Made by a program: the position numbers and the translations under genes
Part shown: positions 1-18,197 of the stretch, piece after piece
How positions within the stretch are numbered: the stretch's first letter is position 1
Layout of the letters: each line of letters opens with the position of its first letter
Source: Bacillota bacterium
GTDB lineage: Bacteria; Bacillota; Clostridia; Christensenellales; DTU072
Length of the DNA: 64,000 nt
Direction: 5' to 3'
Assembly: GCA_023394875.1 (NCBI GenBank)
Contig: JAEXAB010000001.1
Location: 320,588 to 384,587, forward strand
Notes under the pieces: generated by a model
The model's database searches: none
The model's input: only the letters and a program-made list of their open reading frames with translations
Told to the model about the DNA's origin: nothing

Positions 1-231
1 AAACCTGGAACTACTGGGAGCCGTAGTTCCCGTCAAAGGGGCGGTGGTAATGATTATGGGATTATTTGGATCAAACGGTTCTATCTTTTCGGTAACCGTA
101 TCGTACAGAATCTTGGCGGCAAGCACTTTTCCGCCTAGATATAGCTCTCTGTATTCATCGCTGATGGGATAATCACTGACGCTTTTATCGCTTAAATTTA
201 TTTTTGCGAACCTGTTTGCATATCCTTTCAT
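1..231 (-). CDS. aor: aldehyde:ferredoxin oxidoreductase (AOR family), N-terminal 77 codons only; the gene runs off the left edge
   Basis: My own minus-strand translation from the ATG at 231..229 gives MKGYANRFAKINLSDKSVSDYPISDEYRELYLGGKVLAAKILYDTVTEKIEPFDPNNPIIITTAPLTGTTAPSSSRF. This fits the AOR N-terminal domain pattern (..INLS.., GG+-LAAKIL, PLTGT). An AGGTG Shine-Dalgarno lies at 236..240. Confidence 0.6.
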   Translation of the reverse strand, partial: MKGYANRFAKINLSDKSVSDYPISDEYRELYLGGKVLAAKILYDTVTEKIEPFDPNNPIIITTAPLTGTTAPSSSRF

Positions 232-252
232 TTTTCACCTCTACATAATATT

Positions 253-284
253 ATAGTGTATTCTTATAATAGTGTATTCTTATA
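253..284. repeat. perfect tandem direct repeat, 2 x 16 nt (ATAGTGTATTCTTATA), in the region upstream of the AOR start
   Basis: Bases 253..268 and 269..284 are identical. A degenerate third copy follows (TTAGTATATTAC). On the minus strand the unit reads TATAAGAATACACTAT and ends about 20 nt before the AOR Shine-Dalgarno. Confidence 0.8.
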
Positions 285-382
285 TTAGTATATTACAATC
301 CGCTCTTACAGTCAATTAGGCAAAATCCAACAAACTATATAATAATCCTACTTAATATGGCTCAAAAAGGATAAAAATCAAA

Positions 383-1861
383 CTATTTATTCCAAAGTTT
401 GTCTTCAGTAACGCCCGTTGCCGTCTCAACGTCGGAGATTTCTTCTTTAGATAAATTCGTCAAAGTTCCACTTTCGCGCAAGTCACCCAAAGCCTTAATT
501 ACCGATTCAAAACGCCTTTTATTTATTTTGTTAGCGAAGGCAAAAACAAGACAACCTACCAAAAGTACGGCAGGGATAGCTATAAACAGCCATTTTATAC
601 CCAAAACGATTTTCGACTGGGCATAGGCGGCGGGGTCAAATTCTGCAACGGTGCTTTTAAGAATATTGTATTCATTTTGGTCAAAACCAATAGCCTTTAA
701 GCCAAAGCCCAGAATAAATATGGAAACGCCCGAAATAAACTTCCTCATAAAGGTGGTTATGCCCGAATATACCCCTTCTCTCCTTTTGGCGGTCACGCAT
801 TCGTCAATGTCGTATATATCGGACAGCATCGACCAGGTGGCAAGGTTGCCCGCGGCAGCGCCGAAACCGATTAACATAGCAAAAATACAAATTACGATAA
901 TCGGAGTGGAAGGATTAACAAAGATAAACAGTAAGGAAACCAAAATCCATATCGGTATACCGATAAACAGCGGAAAAACTTTGCCTTTTTTCTTGGCTAT
1001 TTCTCCGTTTACTATCATAAAAATCAACTGACTTACCAACAAAACGCCCATAACAAGGGTATAGCTTTGATAGCGTAAAACCACTATGTCTATGTAAAAA
1101 ATAAAGAGGGCAAGCACTAGGTCGATCGTTACTTGGAAGAACAAAAATATCCCCAAAAAGTTCCGATACGACTTTAGCTTAAATACGCTTAGCCAGTCTT
1201 TGAGGGTAATTTTTTCTATGGTGGTCGGCAGTTCTTTTTCCCTTGTTCCTAAAAAAGCAAAGAGCCAGCACAGTCCGAAAATAACGCCGAAAATTATTGC
1301 CATAACTAAGTAGCCGTTCTTTTGTTGCGGACTAATGCTAGCGCCCCCAATGGAGTTAATAATAATACCCGGCACAACGGCTGCAAGTAAACTTGTGGCG
1401 CCGCTAAAGCACATTCTGTAGGTGGTAAAGGACGTTCTTTCGTTATAGTCGTCAGTAATGTCGGAAAGTATGGAGTTATAAGGCACCATAACAATGGTAA
1501 ACGCCGTGCCGAAAAACATATAAGCTATTGCATAATAGGCTATTTTCCAGGCTATACTTTGTATGCCGAAAGAGTAAAAAAGCATAACAAATGACAAAAA
1601 GACAGGCAATATGCCTGCCAAGAAGTAAATTCTTCTTCTACCAAAACGGCTGCGGGTTCTGTCGGACAGCCTACCTACTAGAGGGTCGGTCACCGCGTCC
1701 CAAATTTTGCCTATCAGTATAATAACCGTAGTGGCTAGAATGGGGATTTGCTCTACCAGCACAAGAAAATTCATAAAAAACAGAGAGAATATCAAAAAAG
1801 CGCCACCGCCGTAGATATCTCCCGAAGCGTAAGACAGTTTACTCAAAATTTTGTTTTTCAT
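383..1861 (-). CDS. glycoside-pentoside-hexuronide (GPH/MelB-YicJ type) cation symporter, MFS superfamily
   Basis: The ORF is 492 aa with about 12 hydrophobic segments. The N-terminal motif DAVTDPLVGRLSDRTRSRFGRRR matches the GPH family signature (D-P-x-G-x-x-S-D-R-T-x-S-x-x-G-R-R-R). Its start overlaps the stop of the upstream IclR gene by 4 nt (1858..1861). Confidence 0.8.
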   Translation of the reverse strand: MKNKILSKLSYASGDIYGGGAFLIFSLFFMNFLVLVEQIPILATTVIILIGKIWDAVTDPLVGRLSDRTRSRFGRRRIYFLAGILPVFLSFVMLFYSFGIQSIAWKIAYYAIAYMFFGTAFTIVMVPYNSILSDITDDYNERTSFTTYRMCFSGATSLLAAVVPGIIINSIGGASISPQQKNGYLVMAIIFGVIFGLCWLFAFLGTREKELPTTIEKITLKDWLSVFKLKSYRNFLGIFLFFQVTIDLVLALFIFYIDIVVLRYQSYTLVMGVLLVSQLIFMIVNGEIAKKKGKVFPLFIGIPIWILVSLLFIFVNPSTPIIVICIFAMLIGFGAAAGNLATWSMLSDIYDIDECVTAKRREGVYSGITTFMRKFISGVSIFILGFGLKAIGFDQNEYNILKSTVAEFDPAAYAQSKIVLGIKWLFIAIPAVLLVGCLVFAFANKINKRRFESVIKALGDLRESGTLTNLSKEEISDVETATGVTEDKLWNK

Positions 1862-2595
1862 AATGCCTCCGTAAGCGACTTGACCGCAGCTGTCATTTTT
1901 TTGATGATAAAATCCATTTTTTCCTTAGTCATGTGGCTGTTTGCGCCCGACACGCCCAAAGAATACAGACATTTTTTCCTGCTGTCAATAATCGGCACAG
2001 CTACGCACCGAATATCAAGACTAAGTTCGTTATCGTCGATAGCATATCCATCGTTTCTTATCTTTTCCAGTTCTTTTTTCAAAGCCTCTTCACTGCTTAT
2101 GGTGTTCGGCGTGAACTTTTCATAAGTAATGTTGGTTAGCATATGTTCCCTTTCGGAATCAGTGGCAAAAGCAAGCAGACATTTGCCTACCGATGAGGCG
2201 TGAAGGGGTTCTCTGTTGCCGATTTTGGCATTTACTACCAGTCTGCTGGACGATTCGGCTTGCTCAACAATAACCGCGCCGTCGTTACTTAATGCGCAAA
2301 GGTGTACCGACTCTTCTACTTGACGGCATAAAGCGTCCATAATGCCTTTGATTTGTCCTAAAATGTTTCTACCCTTATAATAATTATTGGACATTTGCAA
2401 AATGGACGGACCTATGCTGTACATTCCGCTGTTGCGGTTGACTTCTACCATATCTTTTTGGATAAAAGTCTTAATAATTCTGGAAACGGTACTTTTGTTT
2501 ATTCCCAGCGCGTTGGCTATTTCGGTAATGGTACACGACCGCTTACCCGAAATAAATTCCAGCACAGCCAGACCGTTTTCCAGAGCTTTGCTCAT
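1858..2595 (-). CDS. IclR-family transcriptional regulator
   Basis: The ORF is 245 aa. It has an N-terminal winged HTH (CTITEIANALGINKSTVSRIIKTF) followed by an IclR-type effector domain of the usual length. ATGA-type overlaps with both neighbours suggest translational coupling. Confidence 0.8.
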   Translation of the reverse strand: MSKALENGLAVLEFISGKRSCTITEIANALGINKSTVSRIIKTFIQKDMVEVNRNSGMYSIGPSILQMSNNYYKGRNILGQIKGIMDALCRQVEESVHLCALSNDGAVIVEQAESSSRLVVNAKIGNREPLHASSVGKCLLAFATDSEREHMLTNITYEKFTPNTISSEEALKKELEKIRNDGYAIDDNELSLDIRCVAVPIIDSRKKCLYSLGVSGANSHMTKEKMDFIIKKMTAAVKSLTEAL

Positions 2596-3233
2596 ATCAT
2601 ACCCCGATAATAATTATTGAGAATATTGTTTTGCAACGCCGTGTTTTTGCAGCTGCCTTTAATAAGTTCCACAAAGGGCGCATGGGCAAAAATGGTGTTT
2701 AGTATGCTCTTATCCATATTGTTTAATATCTCTTCCATAGGCTTGTGAACGGCTGTGGAAATGGTTTTTAAGGTGTTGCGGCTATGTCTTTGACTTTCGC
2801 TACGTTCGGGAGGGTATCCACGCCCGAATTCGTCTTCAAAGAGTTTTTCAAAAATATTATCCAAATTCTTATCCCCTGCCCAGCCGAAGCCTTTATTGAG
2901 AGCCAAAGAAATACAATTACCGCCGTTTATCTGACTGAACAGCCAAGCGTCAAGGGGATTATCGATAAGTCCGCAAAAAACGTCGGGATACTGCATAACG
3001 GAAAGCAAAAAGCCCTGTCCTGTACCGCAACCGCCCACAACGAAGTCAACCGCGCCAAGGTTAAGCAATATCGCCGCCATAAGTCCGGTATGAATATAAG
3101 TAAGTCCGTTTTCTGCCGAATCCTTCGCGCTCATACCCAGGTTAATCGCCTCATAGCCGCTTTTTTTGATTGCCGCAATAATATACTGGTTTTTATCCCT
3201 TGCCGAAACTTCGTTAATAACCGCAATTTTCAT
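2592..3233 (-). CDS. RpiB/LacA/LacB-family sugar-phosphate isomerase-like protein (long form)
   Basis: I moved the start to the ATG at 3233 (MKIAVINEVSARDKNQ...). An AAGGAGA Shine-Dalgarno lies 7 nt upstream, inside the end of the preceding gene. The motif VVGGCGTGQGFLLSV resembles the RpiB/LacAB active-site loop (iCGTGiG). Confidence 0.6.
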   Translation of the reverse strand: MKIAVINEVSARDKNQYIIAAIKKSGYEAINLGMSAKDSAENGLTYIHTGLMAAILLNLGAVDFVVGGCGTGQGFLLSVMQYPDVFCGLIDNPLDAWLFSQINGGNCISLALNKGFGWAGDKNLDNIFEKLFEDEFGRGYPPERSESQRHSRNTLKTISTAVHKPMEEILNNMDKSILNTIFAHAPFVELIKGSCKNTALQNNILNNYYRGMI

Positions 3234-3237
3234 AATT

Positions 3238-4434
3238 TTATCTCCTTTTATTACCAAAAAGAATACTTAAAAAGCTCTTTTTCTTCATTAACGGCTTATC
3301 TTCATAACAATTTATTACTATTTCTTTATTCTGTCTGGAAGAATCCAAAGTTGCCAAAGCAAACTGCAAAACTTCCCGTCCCTTTTCTCCCGATAATATA
3401 GGCTCTCTGTCCTCTTTTATTGCATCGATAAAATCATGGGTGGAATTAATAAAAGCGTCCTGCCAGTCGTGCGGGAAATCCCAAAATTCGGTAACCTTGC
3501 CGTCTTTATAAAGAATAACGGGGGCAACGTCAGAGAGCATTTCTGCGGTACAGCGGGTAAGCCAAACTACCCCTCTGCTACCGGTAATTTCCATTCTTTC
3601 ATCGCAAGTATAGTATTTACCTTTGATATAGAGTGATTCCGAAGAAGTAATATCCCACACGCCGTATACTTTTTTGTCGGCGTACTTCCACATTACTACC
3701 GCGGGGCAGTCCTGACAAACGCCGCCTAAAATTTTGGTTTCGTCAATCCAGGCAACGACCTTTTCCACTCCCCCCAGTAAATCGATAAAAAGAGAAAACT
3801 TATGGTATCCATCGTCAAAAACTACAGGCCCGCCACCCGACAAGGAGTCGTTTAATCTCCAGCTCCAGGATAGCGTATCCACTTTCCAGCCGGTAGGGTC
3901 AAGTTTCTCTTCGCAAACGCCCTTTGCCCTAAGCTTACTTGCAGGGGTGTTGCAAGACATCAAACCGCCGTTGTTCATTTTGTAGCGTATACCCACAACG
4001 TCGCCGATTTCCCCTTTATTTATCAAATCTTTTAGGAATAAATAGGGCGGATAATGTACGAAATTTTCATAAACCTTTAATTTAACGTTGTTTTTCTTGG
4101 CGGCTTCTATCATTTTGTCGCACTCTTCTAAATTTAGCGCCATCGGCTTTTGTACCGAAACGTGCTTTTTGGCTTCGCATGCCTTTATCGTAAGGTCACA
4201 GTGCAGGTGATGAGGCACAAGTATTTCCACCCCCACAATCGTAGGGTCGGCAAGTACCTCTTCATAGCTGTCATAAACTTTGGGAATATTGTGCTCTTCG
4301 GCAAACTTTTCGGCGGCGGCTTTGTTCTTGTCGTATACCCCGTAAAGTTCGGCGTCGGTTCTGTCTTTGTATCCGGCAACGTGCAAAGTGGCTATTCTGC
4401 CGCAGCCTATTAATGCAAATCTCAATTTTTCCAT
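3238..4434 (-). CDS. Gfo/Idh/MocA-family NAD(P)-dependent oxidoreductase (sugar or inositol dehydrogenase-like)
   Basis: The ORF is 398 aa. It has an N-terminal Rossmann motif (RFALIGCGRIATLH), a VSVQKPMA motif (the E-K-P motif of the family) and a C-terminal alpha/beta domain of the usual size. Confidence 0.8.
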   Translation of the reverse strand: MEKLRFALIGCGRIATLHVAGYKDRTDAELYGVYDKNKAAAEKFAEEHNIPKVYDSYEEVLADPTIVGVEILVPHHLHCDLTIKACEAKKHVSVQKPMALNLEECDKMIEAAKKNNVKLKVYENFVHYPPYLFLKDLINKGEIGDVVGIRYKMNNGGLMSCNTPASKLRAKGVCEEKLDPTGWKVDTLSWSWRLNDSLSGGGPVVFDDGYHKFSLFIDLLGGVEKVVAWIDETKILGGVCQDCPAVVMWKYADKKVYGVWDITSSESLYIKGKYYTCDERMEITGSRGVVWLTRCTAEMLSDVAPVILYKDGKVTEFWDFPHDWQDAFINSTHDFIDAIKEDREPILSGEKGREVLQFALATLDSSRQNKEIVINCYEDKPLMKKKSFLSILFGNKRR

Positions 4435-4475
4435 TATCCCACCTCTTTTTTATTATACTATAGTCAGGTCAAAAC

Positions 4476-6266
4476 TTAAACTGTCTCTTTTTTTATGTTC
4501 TCCTCATAAATTCTGCGCTTTTCTTCCATATAGGCAGGTATTGGCACGTCCCACCAGCCGAAAGCCTTGCCGCCGGTGAACGGATATTCTCTGGACACGT
4601 CAATAGTAATCAATGTAGGCTTGTTATTCTTAATAGCTTGCGCAGTATCGTTTTTCAATCCCTCTAAAGAATAAGGCTTGTACGACTCAATGCCAAAACC
4701 TTTTGCAATATTATAAAAATCGGGACTATAGGCTTTGCCGTCGCGCATAAAATCATTGCCGAACGCGCTGTCTTTACCCAGTACGTCGTTTTGCAAATCC
4801 TTAATAGCCATCCAACCGCTGTTGTCAGCCAAAATAATAATTACAGGGATATTATATTGCGCCATAGTGGATAATTCCTGCATTATCATCATAAAGTCGC
4901 CGTCTCCCAACAATGCAACCACAGGTTGATTTGGTTTAGCTAATTTTGCTCCGATAGCCGCAGGCACCGCCCATCCCATTGTAGAAAAACCGCCCGTTGT
5001 CAGATTGCAATAAGGCTTTGGATAGCAATATTCTTGGAACAATTGCGCCTGGGTATTACCCGATGATGTGGCAACTATGGTATCTTCGGGTAAAACTTCG
5101 TTCAACGCGCCGATAATTTGGGAAATCGTCGGCATATCGGTAGGTATACTGCGGATATTAACCAAATAATTCTTCCACTCTGCGCGTAAATCTTTTATTT
5201 CTTTAAGATAGCTGTTGTTAATTTTATAGTCAACCAAAGAATTGTTTAGACGAATAACGGTATCAGTTAAATCAGCAACAATTCCCACGTCGGCAAGATA
5301 GTTTTTGCCGATTTCCGCTGTGTCTAAGTCTACGTGAATTAGCTTGGTATCGGGGAAGTTAAAGCTTACTCCCTTGCGGTAAGAACAAGTGGTTTCATCG
5401 GCAAATCTAGTGCCTAACGCCAAAATAACGTCGGCTTCACGGCAGATTTTCAGCCCAACGGGAGTACCCTTGGAACCTGTATGGAAACAATATTGCGGAT
5501 GAGTTTCCTCCACCGCGCCTTTACCTGCCAAAGTTGTAACAACGCCTGCGCCCCACTTTTCGGCAAGGGCTATTATCTTTTCGGCGCATTTTGCCCGTAA
5601 CGCTCCACCGCCTGCTAGAATAACAGGTCTTTTTGCGGTCTTCATAAGGTTAATAGCCGCTTTGAGGCTCTCTTCGCTTGCGGTAGGCTTGTCGGCAACG
5701 TATTGTTTAGTGATATCCTTTATTTCGATTTCTATAGCGGCGGCTTGCACGTCCATAGGCAAGGTAATAACGCACGGTCCGCTTCTGCCGTTGTTCATCA
5801 AACCGAACGCCCTATTTATAATCCTAGGTATTTGTCCGACCGTCTCTGCCCGCCAACTTCTCTTACAAAGAGGCTCTAAGCTCCTTATTATATTGCTGTC
5901 GGCATATCTTTCCACTTCCTGCAAAACGCCCACGCCCTTCATATTGGTATGCGTGTCCCCGCAAAGCTGCAAAAACGCCGTGGAATCAACGTAAGCCGTC
6001 CCAAGTCCGATAGCGGTATTGAGAGAACCAGGTCCTATGGAAGCAAAAGAAGCAATGGGCTTACCCGAAACTCTATAGTATCCGTCGGCAATAGCCGTTG
6101 CCGCCTGTTCATGCTTAACCTGAATATACTTTATATTCCCCTTTTCCTCTTCCTTTCTTATGGCGTCAAAAAGCCCCAAAACGCCGTGTCCCGGTATACC
6201 CAAAACGTATGGCACACCGTGATTTATTAGTTCTTTAACAATGATTTCCCCGCCTGTCAGTTTCAT
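4476..6266 (-). CDS. thiamine-diphosphate-dependent enzyme of the acetolactate-synthase / sulfoacetaldehyde-acetyltransferase / IolD-like superfamily, substrate unknown
   Basis: The ORF is 596 aa with a three-domain layout. The TPP-binding motif is LLGDGDFMMIMQELSTMAQYNIPVIIILADNSGW (GDG...N). The N-terminal Pyr domain reads GIPGHGVLGLFDA...EQAATAIADGY. A GGAGG Shine-Dalgarno lies upstream of the ATG at 6266. Confidence 0.75.
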   Translation of the reverse strand: MKLTGGEIIVKELINHGVPYVLGIPGHGVLGLFDAIRKEEEKGNIKYIQVKHEQAATAIADGYYRVSGKPIASFASIGPGSLNTAIGLGTAYVDSTAFLQLCGDTHTNMKGVGVLQEVERYADSNIIRSLEPLCKRSWRAETVGQIPRIINRAFGLMNNGRSGPCVITLPMDVQAAAIEIEIKDITKQYVADKPTASEESLKAAINLMKTAKRPVILAGGGALRAKCAEKIIALAEKWGAGVVTTLAGKGAVEETHPQYCFHTGSKGTPVGLKICREADVILALGTRFADETTCSYRKGVSFNFPDTKLIHVDLDTAEIGKNYLADVGIVADLTDTVIRLNNSLVDYKINNSYLKEIKDLRAEWKNYLVNIRSIPTDMPTISQIIGALNEVLPEDTIVATSSGNTQAQLFQEYCYPKPYCNLTTGGFSTMGWAVPAAIGAKLAKPNQPVVALLGDGDFMMIMQELSTMAQYNIPVIIILADNSGWMAIKDLQNDVLGKDSAFGNDFMRDGKAYSPDFYNIAKGFGIESYKPYSLEGLKNDTAQAIKNNKPTLITIDVSREYPFTGGKAFGWWDVPIPAYMEEKRRIYEENIKKETV

Positions 6267-6342
6267 ATAGCCAATATCCTCCGCTAATAAATATAGTTTA
6301 ATTTCTAAAAAAATCTATAAAAAAATACCCCTTTATAACTAA

Positions 6343-6371
6343 ATTATATTCCCGCCAACCCAGCCAGTCAA
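6343..6371 (-). promoter_or_regulatory. sigma-70-type promoter for the minus-strand TPP-enzyme operon
   Basis: On the minus strand it reads TTGACT (6371..6366), a 17-nt spacer, then TATAAT (6348..6343). It lies about 75 nt upstream of the ATG at 6266. Confidence 0.6.
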
Positions 6372-6387
6372 TACGAACGTGAAAAAG

Positions 6388-6408
6388 CCGTTGCACCCTG
6401 TGCAACGG
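6388..6408. promoter_or_regulatory. 21-bp perfect palindrome (CCGTTGCAC-CCT-GTGCAACGG) between the two divergent promoters
   Basis: The 9-bp arms are exact reverse complements, flanked by an A5 run and a T4 run. The palindrome sits 17 nt from the minus-strand -35 box and 24 nt from the plus-strand -35 box, so it is outside both predicted transcripts. Confidence 0.5.
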
Positions 6409-6432
6409 ACTTTTACCGAAAAAAAATGTCTA

Positions 6433-6475
6433 TTGACAAGATTTTTTGCATATGCTACACTTGTGGTAATACCAC
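6433..6475 (+). promoter_or_regulatory. sigma-70-type promoter plus a candidate GntR-type operator for the GntR/GRE operon
   Basis: TTGACA (6433..6438), a 17-nt spacer, then TACACT (6456..6461). A perfect 13-nt palindrome GTGGTAATACCAC (6463..6475) follows directly, with the GT...AC core typical of GntR/FadR operators. Confidence 0.55.
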
Positions 6476-6490
6476 CAGAATAGTGAGATT

Positions 6491-7195
6491 ATGAAAAAAA
6501 ACGATTTAACACAACACTTTATTGATAGCGTAAAAGCGAAAATATTTGACAAAACCTACCGTATTGGCGACAGCCTGCCCCCTCTAAGACAGCTTGCAGA
6601 GGAGTTCGGTTGTTCCCGAAGCGTAGTAAACGTCGGTATCGCCCGACTGGCAGCCGAAGGGTACCTTGTAATACATAAGCGTAAAAAAACCACCATAAAC
6701 AACTTTGTGGACAGGGCAAGTTTGGACGTTCTTAAAGATATGGCGTTTTCTATCAATGCCGAATACCGCATTAAGGCAGTAAAAGATATGCTTCACGCAA
6801 GAAAGCTTATTGAAGTAGCCGCAGTAAGGCTTATGGCGGAGAAAAAAGCCGATACTAGTGAGTTGGACGAAATTATTAGTAAAGAAGAAGCTTTAATAAG
6901 GAAAGAGGAAAAGGACTATATGATAATAGCGCAAGCGGATTTTGCTTTTCACTTTAAGCTGATTGAGTTATCAACTAACGCCGTTTATTATGCGGTAATG
7001 AACTCTTTTAGCGCGCTGGCTAGTCAACTGACAGAGGATTTTTATAAAAACAACGTTGATTTGTTTGGTGGTTACGTAGAAAAGCATAAGCAAATATCTT
7101 CGGCAATAAAAAGTGGCGATGCTAATTTAGCAGCATCTTTGCACGAAGGAATATTAATTCACGGAGAGCAAGCTTACAACAAGTTCAGTATATAA
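6491..7195 (+). CDS. GntR-family (FadR/FCD subfamily) transcriptional regulator
   Basis: The ORF is 234 aa. It has an N-terminal GntR wHTH (LPPLRQLAEEFGCSRSVVNVGIARLAAEGYL) and an all-helical C-terminal FCD-like domain. It is the first gene of the plus-strand operon. Confidence 0.8.
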   Translation: MKKNDLTQHFIDSVKAKIFDKTYRIGDSLPPLRQLAEEFGCSRSVVNVGIARLAAEGYLVIHKRKKTTINNFVDRASLDVLKDMAFSINAEYRIKAVKDMLHARKLIEVAAVRLMAEKKADTSELDEIISKEEALIRKEEKDYMIIAQADFAFHFKLIELSTNAVYYAVMNSFSALASQLTEDFYKNNVDLFGGYVEKHKQISSAIKSGDANLAASLHEGILIHGEQAYNKFSI

Positions 7196-7207
7196 AAGGA
7201 GGCAGCA

Positions 7208-9691
7208 ATGGGAAAAATAAAACAGCCAAAGAACCTAACGCCAAGAATAAAATGGCTACGGGACTATTATTTTGAGGGTGTAAAAAGACCCTGGAACAAC
7301 GAATACAAGGTTTTCACTACCGGAGTGCCCCACGATGAGATGTATAACGAACTAACCTATTACATCGTGCCCGAAACGTACTCTTTCTTCGGCACTTTTC
7401 AAAACGGATTGCCCCAAATTGCTAGGCAAATAGACGTTCCCGACAATTTTTATTCCCAAAGCATTGTGGAAAGGCGGGCATGGTTTGTAAAAGAAGCTAT
7501 GACTAAACACGTTCCGTTGGATATTTTGCCCGGTGACCTTCTTTGCGGAGCAAATTTCAATCTTTTCGTCAGTCATTGTTTGACCAAAAAAGAGAAAAAA
7601 GCTCGCGATGCTATTCTTTACGGCAAAGACGGACTTCGCGCCGAAACGGTGGACTTCCACGACCGCGGCTTTGGCAACTGCGGAGCAACCAGCGGACACC
7701 TTATCCCCGACTACGCCACTATTGTAAATAAGGGATTTAGGTATATTATAGAAAAACTTGATAAAAGATATGAAGAATTAACCGAAAAGCAGAAAAAAGG
7801 TAAGGAAGGCGGGGAAATCAGAGCTATGAAAACAGCTGCGGAAATGCCTTGCGAACTGGCAAAAGCGTACTCTGCCCGCCTAAAAGTTCTTGCCGCCGAA
7901 GAAAAAGACGTTTCCCGCAAAAACGAACTTCTGCAAATGAGTCAAAATCTGGAAGTTGTACCCTACAATCCCGCAAAAGACTTGTGGCAGGCTGTTCAAT
8001 CCTTATGGCTTACTCACATGCTGGTTATGTCCGATGAAAACTATCCCGGACCCGGAGTATCGTTTGGTAGACTTGACCAATATCTATATCCTTATTATAT
8101 AAAATCTTTAGACCAAGGCATGACCGAAAACTTCATGAAAGAAATTTTCGAATGCTTTTGGGTGCATTGCAACACAGCCTACGACGCCCAAATTAAGGTC
8201 GGTATGAATCAAGGTATTACCGCAGGCTTCGGTCAGTTGTTTATGATAAGCGGAGTTGGCGAAAACGGTCAAGATTTAACAAATGATTTATCATATTTAC
8301 TGCTTGACGTAATAGACGATATGAGCCCTATTCTGGAGCCTAAGCCCAACGTGCGTATCCATAAAAATTCCCCTACAAAGCTACTGCTCAAATTAGCCGA
8401 TATGATAGCCGAAAGTCAAGGTGCGCCGTTTTTGCTTAACTTTGACGAAAGATCAATGGCGGGCTTGTTGCGTGAGGCAAGAAAGGGCGGTTTTGAAGAC
8501 AAAATCAATCTAAACAACGTTTATGATTATGCCTCAGTGGGCTGCTTAGAAAACACAATGGTCGGTAACGACCGTTCCAGTACGGTAGACGTAAACCTAA
8601 ACTTACTAAAAGCCGTAGAACTAACCCTTGCAAGAGGTGGAGAGCTCAGACAGTATACCGACGCTATCTGGAACAAACCGCTTGTCCCTAAAACCTTTAT
8701 TGATACCGGCGACCCTGCTAAGTTCGCTACCTTTGAAGAGTTTTACGCGGCGTTTGAAACACAGACCAAATTCATTGTCAAAAAAATATTCGAACTATAT
8801 GATAAGAGCACAAGCGTAAGAGCGTGTTTTCACCCCACGCCGTATTTATCTTTGCTGGTCAAAGGCTGTATAGAAAAAGCCCTTGACGTCACTAAAGGCG
8901 GAGCGGAGATTAGGTTTGTTACCGTTGAGGGCGTAACTTTCGCTTCCACTGTCGATAGTCTGCTTGCCATAAAGTATCTTGTTTTTGACAAAAAAATATG
9001 TACTATGGAAGAACTAATAACCGCCCTTAAAGACAACTGGGTGGGACATGAAAAGCTGCAAGCTATAGCCAAGAACAAAGCGCCTAAATACGGCAGGGAC
9101 GATGACGAAGCCGACGAACTTGCCCGTAAGTTTATGGAGCTTTGGTCGGAGGAATGCTGGAAGTATAAGACAACCGCCACCGATGCACAACTTAGACCGG
9201 GTATGCTCAGTTGGAACTACTGGGTAGGCGACGGCTATATCCTATCCGCAAGTCCAGACGGCAGAGCCAACGGACAATTCCTTTCCAATGCCATTTGCCC
9301 CAGTAACGGCGCCGACACAAAGGGACCTACCGCCAACATTAACTCAGTCGGCAAAGCCCTGGGAGGAAAGAGTAAGGACGGCGATTATTTAGATTACGTT
9401 AATTATCTTCCCAACGGAGCCAGCCATACCATTACCCTTTCTCCCGCCCTTGTAAGGGACGACGGACATAAACAAAAGTTAATAGCCTTACTAAAAGGCT
9501 ACGCCGAAAACGGCGGCACGGCATTGCAATTAAATATTCTTGACGCCGAAACGCTTATCGAAGCCCAAAAGAATCCTACCGAATACAGGCATCTGCTTGT
9601 CAGGGTAACGGGCTACAACGCGTATTTCTCTTCTATCGGTCGGGAACTTCAGAACGAAATCATAGCTAGAGAAATCCACAACAAATATTAG
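7208..9691 (+). CDS. glycyl radical enzyme of the PFL2/glycerol-dehydratase (1,2-eliminase) class, substrate unknown
   Basis: The ORF is 827 aa. The C-terminal glycyl-radical motif is LLVRVTGYNAYF, with the Gly802 codon at 9611..9613. The thiyl loop is SVGCLEN, with the Cys446 codon at 8543..8545 and Glu at Cys+2, as in the GCVE loop of choline, glycerol and propanediol eliminases. An AAAGGAGG Shine-Dalgarno lies upstream. Confidence 0.85.
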   Translation: MGKIKQPKNLTPRIKWLRDYYFEGVKRPWNNEYKVFTTGVPHDEMYNELTYYIVPETYSFFGTFQNGLPQIARQIDVPDNFYSQSIVERRAWFVKEAMTKHVPLDILPGDLLCGANFNLFVSHCLTKKEKKARDAILYGKDGLRAETVDFHDRGFGNCGATSGHLIPDYATIVNKGFRYIIEKLDKRYEELTEKQKKGKEGGEIRAMKTAAEMPCELAKAYSARLKVLAAEEKDVSRKNELLQMSQNLEVVPYNPAKDLWQAVQSLWLTHMLVMSDENYPGPGVSFGRLDQYLYPYYIKSLDQGMTENFMKEIFECFWVHCNTAYDAQIKVGMNQGITAGFGQLFMISGVGENGQDLTNDLSYLLLDVIDDMSPILEPKPNVRIHKNSPTKLLLKLADMIAESQGAPFLLNFDERSMAGLLREARKGGFEDKINLNNVYDYASVGCLENTMVGNDRSSTVDVNLNLLKAVELTLARGGELRQYTDAIWNKPLVPKTFIDTGDPAKFATFEEFYAAFETQTKFIVKKIFELYDKSTSVRACFHPTPYLSLLVKGCIEKALDVTKGGAEIRFVTVEGVTFASTVDSLLAIKYLVFDKKICTMEELITALKDNWVGHEKLQAIAKNKAPKYGRDDDEADELARKFMELWSEECWKYKTTATDAQLRPGMLSWNYWVGDGYILSASPDGRANGQFLSNAICPSNGADTKGPTANINSVGKALGGKSKDGDYLDYVNYLPNGASHTITLSPALVRDDGHKQKLIALLKGYAENGGTALQLNILDAETLIEAQKNPTEYRHLLVRVTGYNAYFSSIGRELQNEIIAREIHNKY

Positions 9692-9700
9692 GATAACGCT

Positions 9701-10627
9701 ATGCAAACCTACATACTAGACGTACAAAAAATGTCCACAGAGGACGGCCCCGGGATAAGGACAACGGTCTTTTTCAAGGGCTGCAACCTCAATTGCAAGT
9801 GGTGCCACAATCCCGAATCTATTTCTTCAAGCCAACATATATTTTGGCTTGAAGATAGGTGTATGGGTTGCAATACCTGCATAGAAGTATGCCCAAATGG
9901 CGCTGTTTCCTTGCAGAGTGACGGAATAAAAACCGACAACAAACTTTGCGACTTTTGTAATAAGTGCATAGAAGAATGCCCCATGAACGCCTTGGAAATT
10001 AAAGGAGAAGTTATTACCGTAGAGGCTTTAGTCAATGAACTGATTAAGGATAAAGCATACTACGACACCAGTCACGGCGGAGTTACTTTATCGGGCGGAG
10101 AGGTTGTACTTAACTGGCAATACGCTTTGGAACTACTAAAGGAACTAAAAACAAGAGGAGTTCATACCGCCATAGACACCGCAGGATGTTATTCTTATTC
10201 TGTATTAGAAAACTTACTGCCTTACGTCGACCTTATTTTATACGACATCAAGCATATTGATAATGATAAGCATAAGCAACTTACCGGAGTGGAAAACACT
10301 TTGATTTTGGAAAACGCCAAAAAACTTGGCAGCTTAGAAAAACCAAAAATATGGATAAGGACGCCGATAATCCCCGACGCTACCGACTCCGAAGAAAATA
10401 TAATCGGAATAGCTAATTTTATAAAGGACAATATGCCGAATATAGAAAAGTGGGAGTTAGTAAGTTTTAACAATCTTGGCAAGCAAAAATACAAACTATT
10501 AGGTAGAGATTGGGTTTACAAGGATTCTCCCCTAATAACAAAAGCAAAAATGCAAAGACTTAACGATTTAGCAAAGCAAATAACCAACAAAGTAACGTGG
10601 TCGGGAGCGACCAGACTGGAGGTATAG
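9701..10627 (+). CDS. glycyl-radical enzyme activating protein (radical SAM, with a two-cluster ferredoxin insert)
   Basis: The ORF is 308 aa. It has DGPGIRTTVFFKGCNLNCKWCHNPE (CX3CX2C at C28/C32/C35), two ferredoxin-type motifs (CMGCNTCIEVCP and CDFCNKCIEECP) and GGVTLSGGE. It lies immediately downstream of the GRE. Confidence 0.9.
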   Translation: MQTYILDVQKMSTEDGPGIRTTVFFKGCNLNCKWCHNPESISSSQHIFWLEDRCMGCNTCIEVCPNGAVSLQSDGIKTDNKLCDFCNKCIEECPMNALEIKGEVITVEALVNELIKDKAYYDTSHGGVTLSGGEVVLNWQYALELLKELKTRGVHTAIDTAGCYSYSVLENLLPYVDLILYDIKHIDNDKHKQLTGVENTLILENAKKLGSLEKPKIWIRTPIIPDATDSEENIIGIANFIKDNMPNIEKWELVSFNNLGKQKYKLLGRDWVYKDSPLITKAKMQRLNDLAKQITNKVTWSGATRLEV

Positions 10628-10629
10628 TT

Positions 10630-11466
10630 ATGACAGCAATAATCAGCAAAGAAGACATGCAAAAATTCGCCGTTACCGGCAAAATCGGTCTGATTTCCAC
10701 TATTAGTCCTTTCGGAGAACCGCATATTACCCTTATTACTTCAATTCAGGCAAAGGATGAAAAAACAATAATGTGGGGGCAGTTTACTCACGGACTTAGC
10801 AAAGAGTACGTCAATAAAAATCCCCTGACAGGCTTTCTTGTGCTAAACTTAGAAAAAAAATGGTGGCGTGGCAAAACCGAATACCGTGATAGTACCGAAA
10901 CTGGCGAAGACTTCGATATGTACAACAATCAGCCCCTCTTCCGCTACAATACATACTTTGGTGTCGGCAGAGTGCATTATATGGATCTTAAAGACTTTTC
11001 CGGTAAGCAGGATTTACCCATGGGTGGCATTATTAAGGGAGCGCTCCTTGGTAAAATGATAAAACCCTTTGTAAAACCCAGTCCTGACGGTATCAAAAAA
11101 ATAAAAGGGATCAGCGTCAAGCTAGCCAAAGACCTAACTTCACTAAAATTCTTGTCCTACATAGACGAAGAAGGCTTTCCTGTTCTGCTCCCCGTCCTTC
11201 AAGCAACCATGAAAGACGAAGGCAGAATATATATTCCACTTACCGCCTACGGTGAGGAAATCAAAAAAATAAAACCCGGTTCCAAAGTAGCCTTATTCTA
11301 TGCCAACCTAGAACTTTCCAGCGTGCTTTTCCAAGGTTACTTTACCGGCATAGAAAAAAAGCTGGGCGTAAGCTACGCTATTTTCGATATTTCCAAGGTC
11401 TACAACTCCATGGTCCCCATTCCCGGCTACATCTACCCAATGGAACCATATTCGGTTGTACATTAA
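10630..11466 (+). CDS. hypothetical protein, possibly a PNPOx-like FMN-binding split-barrel (apparently duplicated domain)
   Basis: I placed the start at the ATG at 10630 (MTAIISKEDMQKF...). GGAGG lies 7 nt upstream and the start is 2 nt after the activase stop. The segments GLISTISPFGEPHITLITS and FLSYIDEEGFPVLLPV resemble the first strands of pyridoxamine-phosphate-oxidase-like split barrels. The assignment is tentative. Confidence 0.35.
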   Translation: MTAIISKEDMQKFAVTGKIGLISTISPFGEPHITLITSIQAKDEKTIMWGQFTHGLSKEYVNKNPLTGFLVLNLEKKWWRGKTEYRDSTETGEDFDMYNNQPLFRYNTYFGVGRVHYMDLKDFSGKQDLPMGGIIKGALLGKMIKPFVKPSPDGIKKIKGISVKLAKDLTSLKFLSYIDEEGFPVLLPVLQATMKDEGRIYIPLTAYGEEIKKIKPGSKVALFYANLELSSVLFQGYFTGIEKKLGVSYAIFDISKVYNSMVPIPGYIYPMEPYSVVH

Positions 11467-11530
11467 TAACAAATAAAACTATAATAACCGAATTATTATA
11501 CAAAGATAATTACCAATTTTGCAACAAAAA

Positions 11531-11559
11531 AGCAACCACATATCGGGTTGCTTTTTTTC
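11531..11559 (+). terminator. rho-independent terminator of the GntR-GRE operon
   Basis: AGCAACC (11531..11537), an 8-nt loop, GGTTGCT (11546..11552), then a T7 run. It lies 65 nt after the stop at 11466. Confidence 0.75.
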
Positions 11560-11638
11560 TATAGTATTCTTGAATTTAAGATTGATATTTTCATATGTCG
11601 TAAATATGTATGTTCTATTGATTTACAAAATTTTGAGT

Positions 11639-11872
11639 GGTAAAATAACAAGAGAACACATTACAGCTTATACCGCAAAAGCCGAAGGAATCCGTAACGA
11701 ACATCCCATTTCCCTAAAAGAAATCAATTTCCATATTTCTATCGAATCCGAAGATATTATTGACTCCGACCTTGCCTTAACCGTCAAACAAGCCGAAACC
11801 ATCTCCCCCGTCTGGCTTGCCATAAAAAATAACGTAACAGTAAACGTTACTTATGAGATAAAATCAAAGTGA
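11639..11872 (+). pseudogene. 3' fragment of an OsmC/YhfA-like gene (about the C-terminal 75 codons); the N-terminal half is absent
   Basis: The tail of the 117-aa ORF reads ...INFHISIESEDIIDSDLALTVKQAETISPVWLAIKNNVTVNVTYEIKSK. This follows the C-terminal pattern of OsmC/YhfA-like proteins, but Ser replaces the usual Cys (..CPV..). The upstream part of the ORF overlaps the operon terminator and looks non-coding. Confidence 0.3.
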
Positions 11873-12187
11873 CACGATCAACTGCATCTTAAAGCGTTCT
11901 TCGCCGTATACTGCGTGAGGTATATCTTTTGGCATAATGAGCGTATCGCCTTCTTTAAGGATAAAGACTTTGTCGCCGACCGTAAACTTTCCTATACCGT
12001 CAAGCACGGTTACCATAGCGTCTCCGCCTGATGCGTGAGTAGATATTTCTTCTCCCTTGTCAAAAGAAAACAAAGTCATGCTGACAAGATTATTCTGCAC
12101 AAGCGTTTTGCTGACAACTTGCCCGTCCTGATAAGCGACCAAATCTTTCAAATTAAGTTTTGCGGTTTTCTCTATATTTTTATACAT
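11864..12187 (-). CDS. cupin-domain protein (cupin_2 type)
   Basis: The ORF is 107 aa. It has G-x5-H-x-H-like and downstream cupin motifs (EEISTHASGGDAMVTVLDG...GDTLIMPKDIPHAV). GGAGGT lies 11 nt upstream of the ATG at 12187. Confidence 0.75.
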   Translation of the reverse strand: MYKNIEKTAKLNLKDLVAYQDGQVVSKTLVQNNLVSMTLFSFDKGEEISTHASGGDAMVTVLDGIGKFTVGDKVFILKEGDTLIMPKDIPHAVYGEERFKMQLIVSL

Positions 12188-12223
12188 AGTTTTATAATAC
12201 CTCCGTCAGTATAGTATGTGTTT

Positions 12224-12251
12224 ATTATATCATAATATATAACTTTGTCTA
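12224..12251 (-). promoter_or_regulatory. candidate promoter of the cupin gene
   Basis: On the minus strand it reads TAGACA (12251..12246), a 16-nt spacer, then TATAAT (12229..12224) preceded by TGA. Confidence 0.4.
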
Positions 12252-12261
12252 TAGTGTAAGC

Positions 12262-12346
12262 TAGCGAACCGTGAACCTTTAGGTTCGATTCCCGCAAAAT
12301 AAGAGAAAAGACCACAGTATTGTGGTCTTTTGGCGTTCCCGGCGGG
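12262..12346. repeat. 85-bp perfect direct repeat, copy 1 (last 16 nt of tRNA-Arg, its terminator and 44 nt beyond), not attached to a tRNA body
   Basis: Bases 12262..12346 are identical base for base to 12435..12519, an offset of 173 nt. Confidence 0.9.
12306..12330 (-). terminator. duplicated copy of the tRNA terminator hairpin (symmetric, potentially bidirectional)
   Basis: AAAAGACCACA-GTAT-TGTGGTCTTTT, identical to the hairpin at 12479..12503. Confidence 0.6.
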
Positions 12347-12434
12347 GGCGACGCGTTAAGCTAAGTTGCCAGTGGCAAGTTAGTAGCCAAAGCCGTGCAG
12401 CAAGCTGTGCTTGCAAGCCGGAGGGGTGAGCGCT

Positions 12435-12519
12435 TAGCGAACCGTGAACCTTTAGGTTCGATTCCCGCAAAATAAGAGAAAAGACCACAGTATTGTGGTC
12501 TTTTGGCGTTCCCGGCGGG
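12435..12519. repeat. 85-bp perfect direct repeat, copy 2 (overlaps the true 3' end of tRNA-Arg)
   Basis: See copy 1. The last 16 nt (12504..12519) are the acceptor 3' strand plus CCA of the tRNA. Confidence 0.9.
12479..12503 (-). terminator. rho-independent terminator directly after tRNA-Arg
   Basis: An 11-bp stem AAAAGACCACA/TGTGGTCTTTT with a 4-nt loop. A-runs and T-runs sit on both sides, so it could act on either strand. Confidence 0.7.
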
Positions 12520-12580
12520 AATCGAACCCACGGCCTAACGCTTAGGAGGCGTTCGCTCTATCCTACTGAGCTACGGAAAC
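12504..12580 (-). tRNA. tRNA-Arg (anticodon CCT), 77 nt with genomically encoded CCA
   Basis: The minus strand reads GTTTCCGTAGCTCAGTAGGATAGAGCGAACGCCTCCTAAGCGTTAGGCCGTGGGTTCGATTCCCGCCGGGAACGCCA. The acceptor stem is GTTTCCG/CGGGAAC (one G-U pair). The D-loop is AGCTCAGTAGGATAGAGC. The anticodon stem is AACGC/GCGTT with loop CTCCTAA, giving anticodon CCT. The T-arm is GTGGG-TTCGATT-CCCGC. Confidence 0.9.
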
Positions 12581-12715
12581 TTATTTTGTATAACTTATTC
12601 TTTGTTATGGTTTTTGCAGTCTTATTATCTTTTGGGAATGCTTTTGTATTATATATCATTTTTGTAGTTTTTGCAATCGTTTGATATATTTAGCTTTTCT
12701 ATTGAATATTTATGG

Positions 12716-12748
12716 CAAAAAAGTAATGGCGGTTATAACTACCGCCAT
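12716..12748 (-). terminator. rho-independent terminator closing the minus-strand operon 19898..12784
   Basis: On the minus strand it reads ATGGCGGT-AGTTATA-ACCGCCAT followed by TACTTTTTTG. It lies about 35 nt after the stop at 12784. Confidence 0.65.
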
Positions 12749-12783
12749 ATATAATTAAGCTATATTTTTATTGTTAATATTTT

Positions 12784-13218
12784 TTAGGTATAGCAAGTAC
12801 GGTTGATTACATTTTGCCAAGGGGCAAAAAGAGTGGTCTCCACCGCTACATTGATTTTTTCTTTATTAAGTTTTTTCAAAAAGGAAATGAGGGCATCGGG
12901 GTTTTGCAGCATTGGCTCGCCGCCGCTAAGCGTTACCCCGCCGCCTGTGGAGAAATAATACTTTTTATCCTTTATTACCGTGTCAAAAATTTCTTGAACG
13001 GTATACTTTTTTTCGCCTATATCCAAAGAGGCGTCAAGCCCCTCGGGATTTTGGCACCAAAGACACCTCAGTCCACAGCCCTTGAAAAAAACCGTAGTTC
13101 TTATCCCGGGACCGTCGTGGACGCAGGTTCTTTGAATCTTAAATACTTTTAACTCGTAATTTTTCCCTAATTCTTGCTTGCTTTTTACCTCTCCGCTAGC
13201 GTCCTTATCATTTAACAT
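12784..13218 (-). CDS. short (144-aa) PflA-type glycyl-radical-enzyme activase-like protein, apparently lacking the C-terminal ~100 residues (possible pseudogene)
   Basis: It has VHDGPGIRTTVFFKGCGLRCLWCQNPE (CX3CX2C) and GGGVTLSGGEP. The ORF ends right after ...VAVETTLFAPWQNV, where full-length activases such as the 308-aa one at 9701 continue for about 100 aa. No GRE partner gene is adjacent. Confidence 0.55.
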   Translation of the reverse strand: MLNDKDASGEVKSKQELGKNYELKVFKIQRTCVHDGPGIRTTVFFKGCGLRCLWCQNPEGLDASLDIGEKKYTVQEIFDTVIKDKKYYFSTGGGVTLSGGEPMLQNPDALISFLKKLNKEKINVAVETTLFAPWQNVINRTCYT

Positions 13219-15051: not shown

Positions 15052-15060
15052 AACTACCTC

Positions 15061-16590: not shown

Positions 16591-16603
16591 ATCATTTGCT
16601 CCT

Positions 16604-16966
16604 TTATTTAATAACTCTGAACATGTCCGTGGTGATTATAACGTCTATTCCTGTGCCTAAAATGTCCTCTACTACAGTTTCTCCGATTTTTAATATTTTG
16701 TCAAGTTTGATTTTCCTTAAAACGTCCATCGCCTCAAGTATTTTTTCTTTGGGTAGTTCTCCTGCCGTCCTTACCGAAACAACGGGCAGCTTGTCAAAGC
16801 AGGTATTTACCGTGGTTGTCAGGCTACGCTTGGGACAAGTCAGTTCTTCGGTGGCAAACTTAATGCCTCTTGCGCATTTGTTGCCGACAACTGTTATTGT
16901 ACCGTTGTTGTTTTCTGCCTCCAAATGACAGCCGTTGGGGCAGACTATGCAAATTAGCTTGGTCAT
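16604..16966 (-). CDS. DUF1667-type small Cys-rich subunit of the three-gene anaerobic glycerol-3-phosphate dehydrogenase-like complex
   Basis: The ORF is 120 aa, with CIVCPNGCHLE...GNKCARG. It overlaps the upstream flavoprotein gene by 4 nt (16963..16966). Confidence 0.7.
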   Translation of the reverse strand: MTKLICIVCPNGCHLEAENNNGTITVVGNKCARGIKFATEELTCPKRSLTTTVNTCFDKLPVVSVRTAGELPKEKILEAMDVLRKIKLDKILKIGETVVEDILGTGIDVIITTDMFRVIK

Positions 16967-18195: not shown

Positions 18196-18197
18196 CT

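Follow-up and report, generated by a model that had tools for sequence, protein, structure and literature searches.

We describe a four-gene cassette built around a glycyl radical enzyme (GRE) in a 64 000-nt stretch of a Bacillota bacterium metagenome scaffold (the window, meaning the whole stretch that was analysed). The cassette fills positions 6420–11474 and encodes a GntR regulator, the GRE, the radical-SAM activase of the GRE, and P278, a 278-residue protein of tandem split beta-barrels. It is tightly spaced, is conserved across phyla in its composition and its operator, and is independent of the operon that faces it, whose first gene encodes a thiamine pyrophosphate (TPP) enzyme. We read it as an autonomous, self-regulated unit that moves between anaerobes as a whole and whose GRE is a C–O eliminase of the CxE class, a reading to which we give a probability of about 0.6. 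Genes were called as open reading frames (ORFs) and checked against Pfam and NCBIfam. All those listed in a preliminary description of the window are present, the aldehyde:ferredoxin oxidoreductase (AOR) as a 77-residue fragment (Table 1).

A tightly spaced cassette independent of the facing operon

The gaps between the four genes are 12, 9 and 2 bp. Loci of the GRE family were counted by the signature peptides MLSWNYW and PILEPKPN in a scan of one genome per species, and at least 577 species-level genome loci carry these peptides. Homologues of at least 62% identity are abundant, and the clade is found in digester, termite-gut, sediment and human-gut anaerobes. Neighbour statistics were taken from the best 80 of the at least 577 loci; the denominator of 67 denotes those with enough flanking DNA. 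These 80 loci are 61–89% identical to the window GRE and span about six phyla (Bacillota, Spirochaetota, Chloroflexota, Desulfobacterota, Bacteroidota and Caldisericota), with Christensenellales, Oscillospiraceae, Lachnospiraceae, Treponema, Leptospirales, Anaerolineae and Syntrophales among the groups represented.

P278, on which the preliminary description did not comment, is the obligate and most faithful partner of this GRE family. By tblastn it lies downstream of the GRE on the same strand in 66/67 loci, and about 3 kb away in the 67th; the activase adjoins the GRE in 63/67, and GntR is directly upstream in 31/70, with three further copies that are divergent. De novo clustering of ORFs from the 80 loci found only the activase, P278 and GntR to recur, the next family reaching 9 of 75. 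Two Pfam censuses gave nothing further: among 333 neighbours within 3 kb no family appeared in more than 5 of the roughly 110 in each batch, and among 55 immediate same-strand neighbours no family recurred beyond single lineages. One locus, L115, has an expanded cassette on a single strand (1–12855) that runs through GRE, activase, a 327-residue protein with no family match, a major facilitator superfamily (MFS) transporter, a PilZ-like protein, P278, AOR, an aldolase of the DHDPS family, a D-2-hydroxyacid dehydrogenase and an AMP-binding enzyme.

The cassette carries its own control region. Its promoter-like site falls within the DNA that is homologous to other cassette loci, and a perfect palindrome of the FadR type follows the −10 element directly (Table 1). 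The motif TGGTNNNACCA, which we take to be the operator type of the FadR subfamily, stands upstream of GntR in 30 of the 31 related loci, from several phyla, against a background of 9% of random 290-bp windows. The site at 6463–6475 is probably the autoregulatory operator of the GntR repressor. The regulator itself, judged by its GntR helix-turn-helix (HTH; PF00392), its FCD ligand domain (PF07729/PF07840) and its TGGTNNNACCA-type operator, is a member of the FadR subfamily; its best NCBIfam match is LldR, far under cutoff. FadR-type GntR regulators usually sense carboxylates.

On the other side of this control region lies a divergent operon (module B) for the TPP enzyme, a Gfo/Idh/MocA oxidoreductase, an RpiB-like isomerase, an IclR regulator and a GPH symporter, with the AOR gene beyond it. 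The preliminary description had proposed that these genes and the cassette, ten genes in all, might form one pathway. In such a pathway a transported glycoside, cyclitol or sugar acid would be degraded by all of them together, the GRE supplying a radical dehydration, for example in place of an IolE-type dehydratase. The distribution of the two operons does not bear this out. Module B DNA is collinear with that of two other loci, L089 (72.5% over 6061 bp) and L110, and this homology stops at 6413 and 6406, while homology of the cassette to L008 and L009 starts at 6420 and 6421; the junction is therefore sharp, with separate promoter-like sites and regulators on its two sides and the FadR-type operator on the cassette side only. 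A metagenome scan with the TPP enzyme gave 27 loci at 58–85% identity. The order TPP-Gfo-RpiB-like-IclR-GPH is found in five of them (L089, L095, L109, L110 and L113), TPP and RpiB-like genes forming the constant pair. The GRE occurs in none of the 27, seven of which have 10 kb of upstream DNA, and AOR is absent from all of them. In the 80 GRE loci, the window Gfo and IclR proteins have no match at all, the TPP enzyme, GPH symporter and AOR have one distant match each (25–32% identity, AOR 32%) that is not an orthologue, and the RpiB-like protein has a single match, at 61% identity in L011.

The nearest relatives of the window agree. L118 (GRE 92% identical) retains AOR-ThiS-ThiF, a 198-residue remnant of the GPH symporter and an intact cassette, although TPP, Gfo, RpiB-like and IclR genes are gone; L008, L009 and L120 (GRE 87–89%) have no module B. 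Co-occurrence of the two operons in related genomes is largely absent, since these four loci lack module B or most of it and since none of the 27 module-B loci has the GRE. On this co-occurrence the joint pathway is rejected as a general model: the cassette next to the TPP-Gfo-RpiB-IclR-GPH operon and AOR is a juxtaposition of one small lineage, not a conserved pathway.

Two observations nevertheless count against complete independence. The cassette adjoins the TPP operon both in the window and in L119 (GRE 91%), where TPP-ALDH-Gfo-TK-TK-RpiB-IclR (ALDH, aldehyde dehydrogenase; TK, transketolase) is divergent from the cassette, and in L011 (GRE 72%) a single operon holds RpiB-like (the 61% match), an ALDH of the MMSDH type, GRE, activase, P278, a second ALDH and a Gfo-family gene. 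We retain a joint pathway, on account of L119 and L011, as a lineage-specific rival, though a decidedly improbable one. It could draw further on two features of module B: the window version lacks the AP_endonuc_2 dehydratase present in L111 and L107, and AOR could replace the ALDH of other module-B loci.

A 144-residue radical-SAM/Fer4_12 protein is encoded beyond the cassette at 12784–13218 (minus strand), and a 65%-identical homologue adjoins the TPP operon in L095 (405–746) in a different relative orientation. A simple insertion of the cassette between this gene and the TPP operon, as L095 might suggest, is unsupported for that reason.

Class and probable chemistry of the GRE

The 827-residue GRE matches both domains of its superfamily (PF02901, E 4e-120; PF01228, E 2.6e-22). 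Its radical motif is R799-V800-T801-G802-Y803-N804-A805-Y806-F807, with Gly802 as the radical site, and its thiyl loop is V444-G445-C446-L447-E448, with Cys446 as the thiyl residue and Glu448 as the base of the CxE motif, the motif of the GRE 1,2-eliminase class (PMC13450708, section 5.6), which GRE isomerases share. Both motifs, noted in the preliminary description, vary little or not at all among 36 family members, L447 being the variable position of G-C-L-E; Cys446, Glu448 and His164 are invariant in the family alignments. The family signatures are DENYPGPGVSFGR (276–288), PILEPKPN and MLSWNYW (666–672), and the invariant polar stretches are DENYPGPGVSFGR, GNDRS-TVD-N-N after the Cys loop, and SWNYW. 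Mean column identity is 72–73%, including the N-terminal 160 residues that lie outside the Pfam PFL-like model. The adjacent activase scores 338 bits against TIGR02494 (cutoff 174).

By these motifs the enzyme is an uncharacterised one of the CxE type, eliminase or isomerase, and not a pyruvate formate-lyase (PFL): the adjacent Cys-Cys pair of PFL is absent, and the PFL1 model gives 110 bits for a cutoff of 994. In sequence comparisons it clusters with no characterised enzyme. It misses every NCBIfam equivalog cutoff, among them those of HypD (394/1100), HpsG (385/1000), HpfG (358/1000) and CutC (329/1050), and among PDB sequences its best match is HypD at 306 bits, with CutC, Archaeoglobus PFL2, glycerol dehydratase (GD), HpsG, IseG, IslA, HpyG, PD, PflD, YbiW and HplG close behind. 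An AlphaFold2 model (pLDDT 81) is about equally similar to all eliminases and isomerases by Foldseek (TM-score 0.70–0.75, 22–27% identity). On all these counts the preliminary description has held up, as it has in finding no proline-pathway or bacterial microcompartment (BMC) genes: among the genes called within about 10 kb on either side there are no Pfam families of the proline pathway and no BMC shell genes (PF00936, PF03319). Our literature search found no characterisation of this GRE family, nor of a GRE paired with a PNPOx-like protein, and a 2026 review of the superfamily, in which whole clades are still unvalidated, includes no enzyme of this kind (PMC13450708).

His164 aligns with His164 of GD and His160 of HypD. 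In GD it is this His that donates a proton to the leaving hydroxyl, while the carbinol loses its proton to the CxE Glu (PMC13450708, section 5.6.1). Of the glycerol contacts of GD (His164, Ser282, Tyr339, Asp447 and Tyr640), His164 alone is kept; Asp447 becomes Val460 with Asp461 beside it, in an approximate alignment. A GD orthologue was rejected on these pocket residues and, the GD contacts not being conserved, the pocket identifies no substrate positively. The substrate probably differs from glycerol and is probably larger. The preliminary description had also raised sulfonates. Here Arg183 of HpsG aligns with Ala160 and Gln187 with His164, and IseG aligns in the same register (two of the three positions of the sulfonate triad were compared). 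With His164 at the Gln position of the C–S lyases (HpsG/IslA) and Ala160 at that of the partner Arg, a sulfonate substrate is unlikely, and a lyase for isethionate, 2,3-dihydroxypropanesulfonate (DHPS) or sulfolactate was rejected for lack of these anchors.

With Cys446, Glu448 and His164 kept, the sulfonate anchors absent and the GD contacts replaced, the GRE is most likely a C–O-cleaving 1,2-eliminase acting on a small anionic hydroxy compound other than glycerol. The cassette might then work as follows. The repressor would occupy the GTGGTAATACCAC operator, immediately downstream of the −10 element, until freed by an anionic small molecule. The activase would set a radical on Gly802, from where it would pass to Cys446, and the resulting thiyl radical would take a hydrogen from the carbinol carbon of the substrate while Glu448 deprotonates the hydroxyl on that carbon. 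His164, as the general acid in the manner of the glycerol and hydroxyproline dehydratases, would give a proton to the leaving oxygen on the adjacent carbon. The net 1,2-elimination, a dehydration or C–O lysis, would yield an aldehyde or oxo compound, and P278 would be a flavin-dependent partner acting on that product or in the supply of electrons.

The substrate hints come from scattered neighbours. Three Desulfobacterota loci, L066, L075 and L079, have a true GlpK immediately ahead of the GRE; L082 has a GlpK fragment, and in L021 a copy is 5 kb distant. GDPD follows P278 in L009 and L120. An MFS transporter for monocarboxylates, of the SfMCT type, is downstream of the cassette in L066 and L082; in L082 a D-2-hydroxyacid dehydrogenase comes next (the L066 sequence stops shortly after the transporter gene), and such dehydrogenases are near the cassette in L115 and L039 as well. 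The MMSDH-type ALDH of L011 is directly upstream, and the loci with AOR nearby are the window, L118, L115 and L025. The regulator type taken together with the GlpK, transporter/dehydrogenase, GDPD, AOR and MMSDH neighbours leads us to guess, with low confidence, at a small substrate of the C3 type, a hydroxy acid or polyol phosphate, with glycerate and glycerol-3-phosphate as examples. These neighbours suggest a substrate that yields an aldehyde or oxo-acid product, with no single candidate supported across lineages. The earlier proposal that AOR oxidises an aldehyde product remains plausible, a few unrelated lineages having AOR or ALDH genes next to the cassette.

Several further points weigh against our reading of the chemistry. 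The reaction type is deduced from three conserved residues, and GRE decarboxylases and isomerases carry CxE as well as eliminases do. The active-site loops have low confidence in the GRE model. Three contacts of GD are replaced, Ser282 by Gly283, Tyr339 by Gly342 and Tyr640 by Leu667 (pairwise HMMER alignment, approximate). None of the neighbour hints extends beyond one or a few lineages, and they diverge, some toward glycerol phosphate and others toward a hydroxy acid.

Some of these points would suit a GRE that is a decarboxylase or a ring-opening isomerase, working on a hydroxy acid or a sugar phosphate. The isomerases HplG, YbiW and PflD retain the CxE motif (PMC13450708, section 5.7) and are about as similar to the window GRE as the eliminases are; Gly283 and Gly342 in place of bulkier GD residues suggest room for a larger substrate; and the occasional neighbours include the PfkB and FGGY kinases. 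We consider this chemistry improbable. The conserved His164 is the counterpart of the residue that serves as general acid in the dehydratases GD and HypD, the conserved neighbours of the cassette include no aldolase or sugar-phosphate gene, and similarity to decarboxylases is lower, at 198 bits to 7e7l (annotated as hydroxyphenylacetic acid decarboxylase) and 118 bits to the large subunit of HPAD. A C–O-cleaving elimination therefore remains the reaction that we favour.

The split-barrel partner protein

P278 contains no cysteine. Its AlphaFold2 model (pLDDT 91, pTM 0.90) consists of two split beta-barrels, and each half resembles the folds of HupZ, of PNPOx-like and FMN-binding proteins and of F420 reductases, with Foldseek E-values down to 3e-7, TM-scores of up to 0.76 (normalised to the target) and supporting profile matches. 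The two halves have no similarity to each other that BLASTP detects. Invariant features of the family are a G-x-S-K motif (55–58), presumably at the position where PNPOx binds the phosphate of flavin mononucleotide (FMN), and the loop PxFRYNTYFG (102–111), which is predicted to be flexible. An exhaustive profile search found 444 representatives among 1.84 billion sequences, essentially all of 270–300 residues. The three distant homologues of P278 (42–47% identity) are all beside a GRE and its activase.

From its modelled fold P278 probably binds flavin. Two results argue the other way: the score against Pfam PNPOx_N is 18.3 bits, below the cutoff of 28.1, and the closest fold match is HupZ, a haem-binding protein. 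Its role may be that of a product-processing flavoenzyme, an electron donor or a docking subunit.

We propose, as a tentative and somewhat doubtful extension, that the GRE and P278 form a new two-component radical system in which the elimination of a common small metabolite is coupled obligatorily to a flavin-dependent step, either redox of the product or maintenance of the radical. If true, such a system would be present in hundreds of anaerobic species of about six phyla. We know of no precedent for a flavin-coupled GRE elimination.

It is also possible, though rather unlikely, that P278 does not act on the product and is an accessory to the radical machinery: it might donate electrons to the activase, protect by scavenging oxygen, or serve as a structural subunit that docks through its invariant loop. 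P278 is kept right after the activase in the same 66/67 loci, whereas no enzyme of downstream metabolism is conserved, and a flexible invariant loop would suit a docking element. The accessory subunits of GREs known to us, however, are all Fe–S or rubredoxin-like proteins and P278 is cysteine-free, and to our knowledge no activase uses a dedicated split-barrel reductant. Accessory subunits are established for HPAD, BSS and MASS (PMC13450708), and another split-barrel protein encoded beside a GRE is LssP, a PNPOx-like protein whose role is unknown, in the operon for limonenylsuccinate synthase (PMC12583861).

Neighbouring features and comparison with known systems

The features of the region are collected in Table 1. 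In the parent scaffold the full AOR has 625 residues (AFOR_N/AFOR_C) and is followed by ThiS, ThiF and MoCF genes.

Table 1. Features of the cassette, the facing operon and the DNA between them
Feature	Position	Strand	Basis
AOR, N-terminal 77 residues	231..1	-	Translation; gene continues past the left end of the window
Module B: TPP, Gfo, RpiB-like, IclR and GPH genes	384..6413	-	DNA homology and shared gene order
GPH/MFS_2 symporter	383-1861	-	ORF; Pfam/NCBIfam
IclR regulator	1858-2595	-	ORF; Pfam/NCBIfam
RpiB-like isomerase, PRK09273/DhuI type	2592-3233	-	ORF; profile match
Gfo/Idh/MocA oxidoreductase	3238-4434	-	ORF; Pfam/NCBIfam
TPP enzyme	4476-6266	-	ORF; Pfam/NCBIfam
Module B promoter-like site	6371-6343	-	Consensus scan
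Terminator-like hairpin, 9-bp stem, CTTTTTC tail	6408-6388	-	Upstream of the module B promoter-like site, within DNA common to module-B loci
Four-gene cassette GntR-GRE-activase-P278	6420-11474	+	Extent of DNA homologous to other cassette loci
Cassette promoter-like site: -35 TTGACA, 17-nt spacer, TG-extended -10 TACACT	6433..6461	+	Consensus scan, 10/12 matches
FadR-type operator GTGGTA-A-TACCAC, perfect 6-1-6 palindrome (predicted)	6463..6475		Directly after the -10; sole match in the window
GntR regulator, FadR subfamily (winged HTH and FCD ligand domain), 234 residues	6491-7195	+	Pfam GntR, FCD, FadR_C
GRE, 827 residues	7208-9691	+	Pfam PFL-like and Gly_radical
Radical-SAM activase of the GRE, 308 residues, ferredoxin-like two-cluster insert	9701-10627	+	TIGR02494; Pfam Radical_SAM, Fer4_12, Fer4
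P278, 278-residue tandem split-beta-barrel protein	10630-11466	+	ORF; AlphaFold2 model; fold search

The terminator-like hairpin has no co-directional gene ahead of it in the window. Just past the cassette, at 11606–12187, are an OsmC-like ORF (88 residues, under the Pfam cutoff) and a convergent 107-residue cupin, neither of which is conserved in related loci. A cluster on the minus strand (13279–19898) encodes a FAD_binding_4/FAD-oxidase_C protein (590 residues), an FGGY kinase (509 residues), DUF1667 and Pyr_redox_2 proteins, and a protein with both DAO and Fer2_BFD; the kinase is xylulokinase-like, under cutoffs, and the cluster recalls a set for oxidation of polyols or glycerol phosphate. 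Farther on, at 21816–55529 (minus strand), one ORF encodes a protein of 11 237 residues with a lipoprotein-type signal peptide (…LISVAAC), an unusual size for a non-repetitive protein; self-comparison by blastp found no internal repeats at E 1e-10.

The GRE clade is a good target for characterisation. It is present in at least 577 species-level genomes, it keeps at least 61% identity across phyla in the best 80 loci, and it is a minimal and portable unit of four genes that has a ligand-sensing repressor and operator of its own. The repressor/operator pair could act as a biosensor for the inducer, which is probably the substrate, and the split-barrel protein, which is strictly co-inherited, represents a partner of a new kind for a GRE. 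The analysis also corrects a plausible but wrong inference of a pathway from adjacency alone.

Module B is best compared with the inositol genes IolG/IolE/IolD/IolB and with streptococcal DhuI. Its TPP, Gfo and RpiB-like proteins resemble IolD, IolG and DhuI, respectively: the TPP enzyme scores 327 bits against the IolD model (cutoff 715), the best NCBIfam match of the Gfo protein is IolG (122, cutoff 355), and the RpiB-like protein meets NF006753 (229 versus 137, a model named ‘hypothetical protein’) and matches DhuI/gbs1892 (PDB 4U8E, E 1.7e-48). In its fuller versions the operon also has a TIM-barrel protein of the AP_endonuc_2 (IolE-like) family, as in L111 and L107, an ALDH and a split transketolase; the AP_endonuc_2 gene is missing from the window. 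Given the genes of these fuller versions, the DhuI-family isomerase and the IolD and IolG matches below cutoff, module B looks like a conserved, uncharacterised route of its own, of the inositol or keto-uronate type. It differs from the Iol systems in having an isomerase of the RpiB/DhuI type, not the cupin-type IolB, and transport by a GPH symporter, and in its relatives the split transketolase stands where the Iol systems have the IolC and IolJ steps.

Among characterised GREs, GD (PDB 1R8W/1R9D) and HypD (6VXC) share with the window enzyme the fold (TM-score 0.74–0.78), the Gly-radical motif, the CxE loop, the His general acid and an adjacent gene for a cognate activase with a two-cluster insert. 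They are only 25–29% identical to it, however (GD about 29% over 622 aligned positions), Asp278 of HypD becomes Pro282, and the window locus has neither 1,3-propanediol dehydrogenase nor pyrroline-5-carboxylate reductase, having instead the split-barrel partner and a FadR-type regulator. The C–S lyases IslA/IseG and HpsG and the DHPS dehydratase HpfG share the CxE motif, score 256–274 bits and follow the same logic of a small anionic C2/C3 hydroxy substrate, but genes for sulfite reductase, a TRAP transporter or sulfoglycolysis are absent near the window GRE. CutC and the other microcompartment GREs have the eliminase fold and CxE motif in common with it, whereas BMC shell genes are absent within 10 kb of the window GRE and do not recur in the 80 related loci. 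For P278 the comparison is with the PNPOx family, HupZ, the FMN-binding protein of Desulfovibrio and the F420 reductases of mycobacteria, whose split-barrel fold is common to each of its halves. Unlike these proteins, P278 is a fused tandem, or pseudo-dimer, in one chain, has no Cys, carries the additional invariant loop PxFRYNTYFG, and is found only beside this GRE family.

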